From a virus (Duplodnaviria; Heunggongvirae; Uroviricota; Caudoviricetes): a stretch of DNA of 6,123 bases. Below the pieces are notes generated by a model. It saw only the letters and a program-made list of their open reading frames with translations. It did no database searches and had not been told where the DNA came from. The stretch lies in the IMG/VR virus record IMGVR_UViG_2537561689_000012; one strand, written 5' to 3'. This document shows, one piece after another, positions 4,868 through 5,698 of the stretch. Position 1 is the first letter of the stretch. Every line of letters starts with the position of its first letter. A program made the position numbers and the translations under genes.

Positions 4868-4897
4868 ATGGTAACAATAGTTACATAGCAATGTCAA
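4868..4897 (-). promoter_or_regulatory. Putative PR-like promoter for the cro-like operon: -35 TTGACA (plus 4892-4897), 18-bp spacer, -10 TACCAT (plus 4868-4873), read on the minus strand
   Basis: Perfect -35 hexamer; the -10 matches 4 of 6 including T1, A2 and T6. Operator O1 lies in the spacer and -10. Predicted start about 20 nt upstream of the SD and ATG at 4841. Confidence 0.5.
4871..4884. promoter_or_regulatory. Operator O1: palindrome GTAACAATAGTTAC (GTAAC-N4-GTTAC)
   Basis: Perfect 5+5 inverted repeat, seen directly. One of three copies of the same palindrome in the window, all intergenic. Confidence 0.6.
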
Positions 4898-4918
4898 CCA
4901 TAGCAACATCACTTGGTA

Positions 4919-4932
4919 GTAACATTGGTTAC
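4919..4932. promoter_or_regulatory. Operator O2: palindrome GTAACATTGGTTAC, directly abutting the cI ATG at 4933
   Basis: Perfect 5+5 inverted repeat, centred 48 bp from O1. Its position at the repressor start codon suggests autoregulation and a leaderless or near-leaderless cI mRNA. Confidence 0.6.
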
Positions 4933-5607
4933 ATGAAAAACACTATCAGCGAACGTATTCGGAATCGTCGAAAAGACGTTGGATTAACCCAACAGCAGGT
5001 TGCGAAAGCAATCGGCATATCTCGTGTATCCGTAACAAAATGGGAAAATGGCTCTTCAAAACCTGACGGTGAGAATTTGCATCTACTGTCAAAATTGCTT
5101 TCCAAATCTCCTGAATGGATTCTTTATGGAAAGGACGGTCACGATAAAACCGATGATCTGCGTCTGAATCAGTATCCTTACATTAGTGACAACATCGCCC
5201 GGTTGCCCGTTTTAACGTGGGAACAGGCTGGTTATTGGGATATGAGTTGTCCAGTAACCGAGATTCCTGGCATTAAGAATTGGGTTGATGTCATGACAAA
5301 AACCGCTGAAAACTCTTTTTTATTGCATGTTGAGGGAGATGCGATGACAAACTCTAACGGCCTCCCAACCATCCCCGATGGATCTACCGTGCTGATCACA
5401 CCATGCTCAAGTAACATTAGAGAACTGGTGGGAAAAATAATCTTAATCCAATTGGAAGGAACGCCAAACGTAACACTAAAAAAAGTTGCGATTGACGGAC
5501 CAAACATCTATCTGTTGTCACTGAATCCGCTTTACAAACCCATCGAACTGAATGGTGGTTACACCATTAAAGGTAAAGTTTCACAAATACATCAATACTT
5601 AGACTGA
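4933..5607 (+). CDS. Lambda CI-like repressor (N-terminal XRE-type HTH plus C-terminal S24/LexA-like domain), 224 aa, with Ala at the catalytic Ser position
   Basis: HTH segment LTQQQVAKAIGISRVSVTKWENG. C-terminal domain aligns by eye with the lambda CI C-terminal domain (FLLHVEGDAMT... against FWLEVEGNSMT...; TLKKV against TFKKL; EQAGYW against VQAGMF). Start at ATG 4933 is chosen over the track's 4834 (a TTG), which would place both operators and the cro start inside the ORF. Confidence 0.85.
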   Translation: MKNTISERIRNRRKDVGLTQQQVAKAIGISRVSVTKWENGSSKPDGENLHLLSKLLSKSPEWILYGKDGHDKTDDLRLNQYPYISDNIARLPVLTWEQAGYWDMSCPVTEIPGIKNWVDVMTKTAENSFLLHVEGDAMTNSNGLPTIPDGSTVLITPCSSNIRELVGKIILIQLEGTPNVTLKKVAIDGPNIYLLSLNPLYKPIELNGGYTIKGKVSQIHQYLD

Positions 5608-5612
5608 GTCAG

Positions 5613-5636
5613 AACCCGCATTCATTGCGGGTTTTT
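5613..5636 (+). terminator. Rho-independent terminator after cI
   Basis: Stem CCCGCA (5615-5620) pairs with TGCGGG (5626-5631), loop TTCAT, followed by T-run 5632-5636. It begins 6 nt after the cI stop. Confidence 0.8.
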
Positions 5637-5669
5637 CACGCTCTCAAATGTACCTTTTGCAACATCGTA

Positions 5670-5698
5670 TTGACTCGAAAGGTAACTCTTGTTACCTT
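5670..5698 (+). promoter_or_regulatory. Putative PL-like promoter with embedded operator O3: -35 TTGACT (5670-5675), 17-bp spacer, -10 TACCTT (5693-5698); operator GTAACTCTTGTTAC at 5682-5695
   Basis: Same architecture as the PR-like promoter: -35 TTGAC(A/T), operator in the spacer, and a -10 TACC(A/T)T that starts at the T-A-C of the operator's distal half-site. Third copy of the GTAAC-N4-GTTAC palindrome, extended to GGTAAC...GTTACC. Confidence 0.5.

Follow-up and report, generated by a model that had tools for sequence, protein, structure and literature searches.

Three GTAAC-N4-GTTAC palindromes as probable operators of a CI/Cro immunity switch in a Qin-like prophage of Escherichia coli

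The Qin prophage of Escherichia coli K-12 is the closest experimentally studied homologue of the immunity region described here, which lies on 6,123 bp of tailed-phage DNA (IMG/VR record IMGVR_UViG_2537561689_000012; the window hereafter denotes this whole stretch). For Qin, a bistable switch and the binding of the DicA and DicC proteins have been shown experimentally (10.1101/2023.04.14.536235, PMC3441716, PMC11430063). DicA represses dicBp and dicC (bioRxiv 10.1101/2023.04.14.536235); in K-12 it binds in vivo the operator Oc, the equivalent of site A below, and appears to activate its own gene (PMC3441716). Chromatin immunoprecipitation sequencing of DicC revealed a TTnG...CnAA palindrome, and DicC represses dicA (PMC11430063), while the Reg-Seq paper provides no usable position for the dicA promoter. 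In the window, three copies of another palindrome, GTAAC-N4-GTTAC, surround a cI-like repressor gene. From the sequence evidence, these are very probably the operators of a lambdoid CI/Cro immunity switch carried by a Qin-like E. coli prophage.

The search for GTAACNNNNGTTAC gave exactly three matches in the window, at all three coordinates that the initial annotation had reported. The sites, the two regulatory genes and the transcription signals among them are the following:

4871-4884, unstranded: site A, OR1-like, GTAACAATAGTTAC, an exact match that reaches across the spacer of the PR-like promoter, which reads toward cro, and into its -10 by 3 nt
4919-4932, unstranded: site B, OR3-like, GTAACATTGGTTAC, an exact match whose last base directly precedes the cI ATG at 4933
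5682-5695, unstranded: site C, OL1-like, GTAACTCTTGTTAC, an exact match that starts 6 nt past the -35 of the PL-like promoter
4933-5607, plus strand: cI-like repressor gene, 224 aa (Pfam HTH_3 2e-16, Peptidase_S24 9.5e-17)
4626-4841, minus strand: cro-like gene, 71 aa (Pfam P22_Cro 2.9e-16; helix SHVAVVRW)
4852-4848, minus strand: Shine-Dalgarno sequence AGGAG, read from the sequence, before the cro ATG at 4841
4868-4897, minus strand: PR-like promoter for cro, with -35 TTGACA (4897-4892), an 18-nt spacer and the TG-extended -10 TACCAT (4873-4868)
5613-5636, plus strand: intrinsic terminator 3' of cI, an inverted repeat with stem AACCCGCA/TGCGGGTT, a 5-nt loop and a T run
5670-5698, plus strand: PL-like promoter, with -35 TTGACT (5670-5675), a 17-nt spacer and the TG-extended -10 TACCTT (5693-5698)

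Chance alone would give a mean of 0.01 matches, in agreement with the earlier estimate of about 0.006, and none of 200 dinucleotide-preserving shuffles contained three or more. No further exact site, even as GTAAC-N4-GKTAC, occurs in 41.3 kb covering the same prophage and its chromosomal flanks in strain 602354 (locus L001). The description of the sites as perfect 14-bp palindromes holds for their 5+5 bp half-sites, which form perfect inverted repeats in all three, and fails for the 4-bp spacers AATA, ATTG and TCTT of sites A, B and C, which are non-palindromic. An extension to an 8+8 palindrome (AAGGTAAC/GTTACCTT) is seen in site C only.

The promoters and the terminator that had been proposed around the sites are both present, according to a promoter scan, an inverted-repeat search and reading of the sequence. 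The PR-like promoter is near consensus in the scan (10/12 matches plus TG). The PL-like promoter was read from the sequence and stays below the -10 threshold of the scan; site C fills its spacer, and the last three bases of the site together with CTT make up the -10 TACCTT. Past the cI stop codon (5605-5607) come first the terminator hairpin and then the PL-like promoter. When the window and four related loci were compared with Rfam, neither the operators nor the PL leader matched a known RNA family; a sub-threshold Trp_leader match was rejected as a chance result caused by the cI terminator hairpin.

The repressor, which combines a helix-turn-helix (HTH) with a LexA-like C-terminal domain, and the small cro-like gene are divergently transcribed. 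In PDB, the repressor matches lambda CI (3bdn, C-terminal domain, E 4.6e-14), the N-terminal domain of P22 C2 (E 2.6e-12) and the 434 repressor (E 2.7e-05), and its recognition helix reads ISRVSVTKWE. The locus thus displays divergent regulatory genes, operators over PR, the same operator at PL, and a half-site and helix specific to this immunity, as lambdoid switches do.

In the switch that we propose, dimers of the CI-like repressor, with its HTH of the P22-C2/434 type, would read the GTAAC half-site, and the small P22-Cro-like protein would read the same sites. Bound at site A, the repressor would cover the spacer and the -10 of PR and turn off cro, the YdaT-like gene and the replication genes. 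At site C, aided by a weak OL2, it would cover the spacer and the -10 of PL, a shut-off that would silence the ydfABC-dicF-dicB-exo-xis-int operon. Occupancy of site B by excess CI or by Cro would lower the expression of cI, as with lambda OR3. Directly visible in the sequences are the sites, their placement against promoters and genes, their conservation and their co-variation with both recognition helices; the binding itself, the order of occupancy, the protein preferred at each site, the location of the cI maintenance promoter and any looping between OL and OR are inferred.

Related loci provide the strongest arguments for this operator reading. A protein search gave relatives with 90, 88, 70, 67, 52, 49, 47 and 42-46% repressor identity, and the helix (I/V/L)(S/T)RVSVTKWE is found in all of them. 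Loci were retrieved from Salmonella, Hamiltonella, Arsenophonus, Yersinia, Pantoea phage AH07, Pectobacterium phage ZF40 and a Klebsiella phage, as well as from two unassigned contigs with 67% (a metagenome) and 49% repressor identity. Every retrieved locus carries GTAAC-N4-G(T/G)TAC at -62 and at -14 relative to the ATG, a spacing of exactly 48 bp, with at most one mismatch per site except in the diverged site B of Hamiltonella. The offset of site A, -62 from the cI ATG, is kept in 10/10 diverged relatives (42-70% identity, seven other genera). Behind the cI terminator, one or two sites are present in all retrieved loci but Salmonella, the promoter-proximal one placed 6 nt after TTGAC(A). The palindrome therefore recurs at equivalent positions of related prophages across genera, down to a repressor identity of 42%. 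In an ungapped alignment anchored on the ATG, conservation is limited to the two sites, the PR -35 and a middle half-site. The half-sites are all intact in 78 of 80 near-identical loci; of the two others, one carries a point change in site A and the other a diverged site C, and the only common variation concerns the site C spacer. Screening one genome per species for close relatives of the repressor brought up only two irrelevant HTH fragments from metagenome-assembled genomes of Firmicutes; it was the protein database and the viral contigs that supplied informative relatives.

In the reciprocal test, the only criterion applied to IMG/VR was the DNA pattern, a pair of sites at 48 bp spacing and then an ATG; at least 120 contigs were recovered. 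Among the matches listed, translation from that ATG gives an HTH with G(V/I/L)(S/T)R..(V/I).KWE in 117 of 120 contigs; the 78 distinct proteins range in identity from 100% to about 21% and include short DicA-like forms lacking the S24 domain. Again among the matches listed, at least one more site lies within 400 bp past the stop codon in 106/120 contigs, and the geometry of TTGAnn, 6 or 7 nt, then the operator is seen in 61 of the 78 distinct relatives.

Repressors of only 128-152 aa, with the same SR....KWE helix and the operator pair, were observed in nine IMG/VR loci (L120, L131, L139, L145, L155, L187, L188, L200, L211). Most of these have no S24 motif, like DicA, and three show GESM and may simply be cut short. 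Such short forms show that exchange of the DNA-reading module with its operators does not depend on the C-terminal domain.

Heteroimmune cousins keep the layout, with both the half-site and the helix altered. Positions are given from the repressor ATG:

Window: operator GTAAC-N4-GTTAC; sites at -62, -14 and +749; CI helix SRVSVTKWE; Cro helix SHVAVVRW
mEp390: operator GTA(G/A)G-N4-C(C/T)TAC; sites at -62, -14, +709 and +744; CI helix ...TGWE; Cro helix ...SGW
YeP1: operator of the same family as mEp390; sites at -61, -14 and +749; CI helix ...TGWE; Cro helix ...SGW
K-12 Qin: operator TTAGY-N4-RCTAA; sites at -66, -16 and 6 nt after the dicBp -35 TTGACC; CI (DicA) helix SHVSVSQWE

In mEp390 and YeP1, CI (TGWE for TKWE) and Cro (SGW for (R/K)W) differ from the window proteins at the same helix position, beside the Trp. 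Arg31 and Lys36 of the window repressor align opposite Asn32 and Gln37 of P22 C2, and in the complexes of the 434 and P22 repressors these helix positions read outer and inner base pairs of the half-site. Arg31 and Lys36 as readers would fit the G at position 1 and the C·G pair at position 5; judging from this alignment, GTAAC is probably read through these two residues.

That the repeats arose by chance or serve no regulatory function, being recombination scars or sites of restriction-modification or other host factors unrelated to the adjacent repressor, is effectively refuted and retains hardly any probability. The shuffles do not reach three matches, the positions are fixed relative to promoters and start codon across genera, the DNA pattern predicts the recognition helix in nearly all contigs listed, and the half-site co-varies with the helices of both CI and Cro. 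The proposal of an OR/OL-like operator set is supported by gene content, promoter overlap, conserved positions and this co-variation.

The start of the repressor gene had to be reconsidered. RefSeq entry WP_000103684.1 (238 aa) begins at ATG 4891, versus 224 aa from ATG 4933. P22 C2 and all homologues align from MK(N/T)... at 4933, the operator lies directly before ATGAAA or ATGAGA in 10/10 diverged relatives, and several independent gene calls begin there. Both the homologue alignment and the placement of the operator against the ATG in the ten relatives make ATG 4933 the better start. The N-terminal extension "...SNIGY-MK..." of database entries then reads as translated operator. With ATG 4933, all three sites are intergenic, as originally claimed; with ATG 4891, site B would fall inside the open reading frame.

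The sites were ranked with a position weight matrix (PWM) derived from 203 sites, which came from 69 distinct repressor loci not belonging to the E. coli clade. Site A scores highest in the window (23.7), followed by site C (23.3) and site B (19.0). The fourth best score, 9.5, falls between the 95th (8.4) and 99th (11.6) percentiles of the shuffle maxima and belongs to the first of the following features; the two others lie between sites A and B:

5650-5663, unstranded: probable weak OL2, GTACCTTTTGCAAC, 32 bp upstream of site C and on the opposite side of the -35
4894-4907, unstranded: OR2-like middle position, TCAACCATAGCAAC, degenerate in the window, overlapping the PR -35
4884-4911: direct repeat CATAGCAATGTCA / CATAGCAACATCA with 15 bp spacing, between sites A and B, overlapping the PR -35

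Relatives carry a second OL site 33-35 bp upstream of OL1. Given its PWM score and this similar spacing, 5650-5663 is a probable weak OL2 that was missed by the initial annotation. At the middle OR position, 46 of the 78 distinct relatives have a perfect GTTAC half-site at distances of 23 bp to site A and 25 bp to site B, and most relatives read CAAAC-N4-GTTAC there. In the window, 4894-4907 is absent from the top 15 PWM hits, and since TCAACCATAGCAAC does not score, an OR2 is doubtful in this prophage. The operator set of three thus stands for the strong sites and probably falls short of the total, considering the weak OL2 and the degenerate OR2 position. The 13-nt direct repeat CATAGCAA(T/C)(G/A)TCA was considered as an extra binding site and rejected, as it is not conserved in distant relatives.

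Several observations weigh against the operator reading as a whole or against parts of it. Because the relatives share ancestry, their conserved sites cannot be counted as independent events. The middle OR2, required for lambda-type cooperativity and for activation of the maintenance promoter PRM, is degenerate in the window. Sites A and B are 48 bp apart, or about 4.6 helical turns, a spacing out of phase for direct cooperativity between the pair. For a cI maintenance promoter, the window shows no convincing -35. The operator sequences appear in no paper found by our literature search, which likewise gave nothing specific on the operators of ZF40. Finally, in K-12, DicA did not bind in vivo the sequence-predicted operators Om and Oa, the latter being the equivalent of site B (PMC3441716; data not shown there). 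By analogy, site B is perhaps not a CI site of useful affinity.

This last result fits a division of labour, in which A and C would be the CI operators, while B would mainly serve Cro, or escape binding by CI altogether, and act only in the lytic shut-off of cI. The DicA result, with binding at Oc and none at Oa, and the repression of dicA by DicC (PMC11430063) speak in its favour. So does the spacer of site B, which is ATTG in 60 of the 78 distinct relatives among the matches listed, unlike that of site A, which is AAAA in 58 of the 78. In the 434/P22 family, the spacer tunes operator affinity. However, the half-sites of site B are perfect and identical to those of A and C, its PWM score is far above background, and the Oa result comes from data not shown on a different protein. 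We regard this division of labour as unlikely, while giving it real weight.

Alternatively, site B could be kept mainly as the core promoter and 5' end of a leaderless cI mRNA, with TAACAT as the -10, 7 nt before the A of the ATG, and its likeness to an operator would be secondary. In every relative, site B directly adjoins the ATG; ATG 4933 lacks a preceding Shine-Dalgarno sequence, and lambda cI transcribed from PRM is leaderless, so that a leaderless start at this ATG is plausible from the sequence. Yet heteroimmune cousins carry their own, different palindrome just before the repressor ATG (GTAGGATTGCCTAC in mEp390, TTAGCATTAGCTAA in K-12), which indicates that this position tracks the specificity of the repressor and not a fixed promoter hexamer. 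Moreover, operator and promoter roles are mutually compatible. A mainly promoter-bound function for site B is accordingly quite improbable, more so than the division of labour. The conserved ATTG spacer was also considered as evidence for a leaderless -10 and was rejected, the spacer of site A being equally conserved in the large clade. Under the preferred operator reading, site B could serve CI autorepression, be a target of Cro, or both, and its role is less certain than those of A and C.

Centre-to-centre distances in the window are 811 bp for A-C and 763 bp for B-C, and A-C measures 797-813 bp in eight relatives. Looping between OL and OR over 763-811 bp is possible, purely by analogy with lambda, where CI octamers bridge the two.

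The C-terminal domain of the repressor has an unusual feature:

5341-5343, plus strand: codon GCG for Ala137, at the position of the S24 catalytic serine, GDAM being aligned opposite GNSM of lambda CI

Relatives show G(D/E)SM where the window repressor has GDAM instead of the expected GDSM. The cleavage-site pair Ala99-Gly100 and the catalytic Lys (TLKK) are retained, so the Ser-Lys dyad that characterizes self-cleaving, SOS-inducible repressors is incomplete here for want of its serine. Alanine occupies the nucleophile position in 80/80 near-identical loci (as GCG) and in the relatives with 90% and 70% identity, the latter from Salmonella. Serine (TCA or TCG, one base from GCG) is found in those with 88% and 67% identity. 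The substitutions S119A in LexA and S149A in lambda CI are reportedly the classic cases of lost self-cleavage. With the same replacement of the nucleophile and these precedents, the window repressor should not cleave itself, and the switch is probably not SOS-inducible by the usual RecA-stimulated route.

The switch would then flip by other means, such as an antirepressor, dilution or noise, as described for DicA of Qin. In K-12 Qin, the truncated DicA is controlled by the antirepressor Rem together with bistability. At the rem position of the prophage studied here, no Rem homologue was found; a 92-aa protein without similarity to Rem is encoded there. A LexA-box search over 41 kb gave three matches, none with an obvious link to an antirepressor gene. 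Our literature search on phage repressors that naturally lack the serine returned nothing specific. We tentatively suggest, as something less than an even prospect, that this repressor represents a naturally SOS-blind immunity type with a conserved S24 domain, whose helix and GTAAC module define a cross-genus immunity group including ZF40 and AH07. The S24 domain would presumably be kept for dimerisation or cooperativity. If true, this would be a second route to the outcome reached in K-12 Qin, there through the loss of the whole C-terminal domain. If adaptive, a one-base change would lock the toxic dicF/dicB operon away from induction by DNA damage in a host-domesticated prophage. Inducibility, doubtful given the Ser-to-Ala change, bears on the expression of the dicF/dicB cell-division inhibitors in pathogenic E. 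coli.

The genomic context points to a Qin-like lambdoid prophage of E. coli. Positions 4600-5900 of the window are 100% identical to the chromosomes of several human enterotoxigenic E. coli isolates, and of 5,426 complete E. coli genomes, about 700 contain at least 80% of this stretch. In strain 602354, the element adjoins rspB and continues rightward with ydfA-ydfB-ydfC-dicB-exonuclease-xis-int; this neighbourhood and gene order underlie the assignment. The dicF small RNA, located between ydfC and dicB in both K-12 Qin and phage Tritos, does not appear among the annotated features of the 602354 stretch. Leftward of the control region, and beyond site C on the right, the window contains:

4204-4629, minus strand: YdaT-family gene in the cII position, first after cro in the PR operon (Pfam YdaT_toxin 7.4e-10)
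3062-4138, minus strand: O-like gene without Pfam match; relatives have an annotated replication protein at the equivalent place
2599-3021, minus strand: DUF977 gene (Pfam)
5703-5879, plus strand: PL leader common to heteroimmune phages, at the right edge of the immunity cassette, with a conserved RNA-like core at 5773-5797

A YdaT-family gene follows cro in most relatives that have a cro-like gene. Homology with heteroimmune phages (Tritos and others) ends on the left at the end of the YdaT gene and resumes on the right at window position 5703. As it resumes just 3' of site C, this site belongs to the exchangeable immunity cassette.

A sister leader element of about 62 nt, NCGAAC-AGGCAGGACGCC-CACGAAGUAGCC-stem-GGCNUAUGAA-stem'-AUGAUUCGN, was observed in related loci (L086, L087, L089, L219-L296). 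At least 120 viral contigs contain it, as do SfV, SfII, ST64B, ZF40, AH07 and others; compensatory changes affect 6/16 predicted pairs, and no Rfam family matches. The PL leader element might be a cis-acting leader RNA, for example one involved in put-like antitermination.

Within the O-like gene, CGTGACA is found six times (0.75 expected), with an adjoining tandem stretch of tatctgtatcttta (3708-3745, 3935-3995); these repeats look like origin iterons. The left third of the window consists of insertion sequences (IS) of the IS21 family and IS3: positions 1-2530 hold an IS21-family istB (310-1092) and an IS3 copy directly left of the DUF977 gene. In strain 602354, it is IS100 that interrupts the DUF977 gene. 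From these differing insertions in or near DUF977, the prophage appears to decay differently by strain, with the immunity region left intact. In ydfA, at about 5972-5978, an A-rich run has two extra bases relative to strain 602354 (accaaaaagcaaaaacg vs accaaaagcaaaacg), which shifts the frame so that the open reading frame reads into ydfB; this is either a real pseudogene or a homopolymer sequencing error. In IS3 orfA (1334-1390), the frame from ATG 1334 apparently stops after about 17 codons (...aaacaagcattcgcctgaa), which suggests a one-base insertion in an A run. Taken together, the ydfA and orfA changes hint at indel errors or decay.

This repressor, until now annotated only as a "LexA family protein", can be given an operator (GTAAC-N4-G(T/G)TAC), a promoter map and a start codon, and the RefSeq start of its gene is corrected. 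Diverged relatives with the same helix and operator are found in many enterobacterial phages and prophages, and the match of helix and operator predicts which prophages should be mutually immune across genera. The family also makes a convenient system for testing how two helix residues give a repressor of the P22/434 type a new specificity.

Compared with known systems, the resemblance to lambda OR and OL invoked in the initial annotation holds for the layout, though the closest experimentally studied homologue is the dicC-dicA-dicBp region of Qin rather than lambda. The locus and K-12 Qin share their chromosomal neighbourhood beside rspB and the downstream ydfA-ydfB-ydfC-dicF-dicB operon. Both have a palindrome near the cro-like gene, another 48-50 bp away and 0-2 nt upstream of the repressor ATG, and an operator placed 6 nt after the -35 of the promoter past the repressor gene, its last 3 nt beginning the -10. 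The 14-bp 5-N4-5 operator format is also common to the two, dicBp being TTGACC, 6 nt, TTAGTCATGGCTAA and T. In contrast, the half-sites are TTAGY/RCTAA in Qin and GTAAC/GTTAC here, and the helices ISHVSVSQWE and ISRVSVTKWE, respectively. DicA has 135 aa without S24, whereas in the window repressor the S24 domain is complete but its nucleophile is dead; the two proteins align at about 36% identity, essentially over the N-terminal domain. With half-site, helix and C-terminal domain all different, the window prophage and K-12 Qin are heteroimmune and not of the same immunity type.

With the P22 C2 and 434 systems, the locus shares homology of the N-terminal domain, a Cro of the P22_Cro family and, as the PWM indicates, a 14-bp core with a 4-bp AT-rich spacer. 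In P22 and 434, OL directly follows the repressor gene, about 0.8 kb from OR, and the window has the same arrangement. It differs by its half-site, by Arg31/Lys36 in place of Asn32/Gln37, by the degenerate OR2 and by the Ala at the catalytic Ser position. With lambda, it has in common the divergent cI and cro genes, operators over PR and PL, an OR3-like site at the cI start and a homologous CI C-terminal domain. Lambda nevertheless has operators of 17 bp and 2.3 kb between OL and OR, against 14 bp and about 0.8 kb here, and the OR2 position of the window (-39 to -26 from the cI start) is unlike the activating geometry of lambda. No deposited phage with this repressor was found: the best deposited phage match has 43.5% identity, and P22 C2 and the phage 21 cI have 36%. 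The operator specificity, of which our literature search found no description, is new within a thoroughly known kind of system, and since the design is a textbook one, its description is a useful annotation rather than a surprise.

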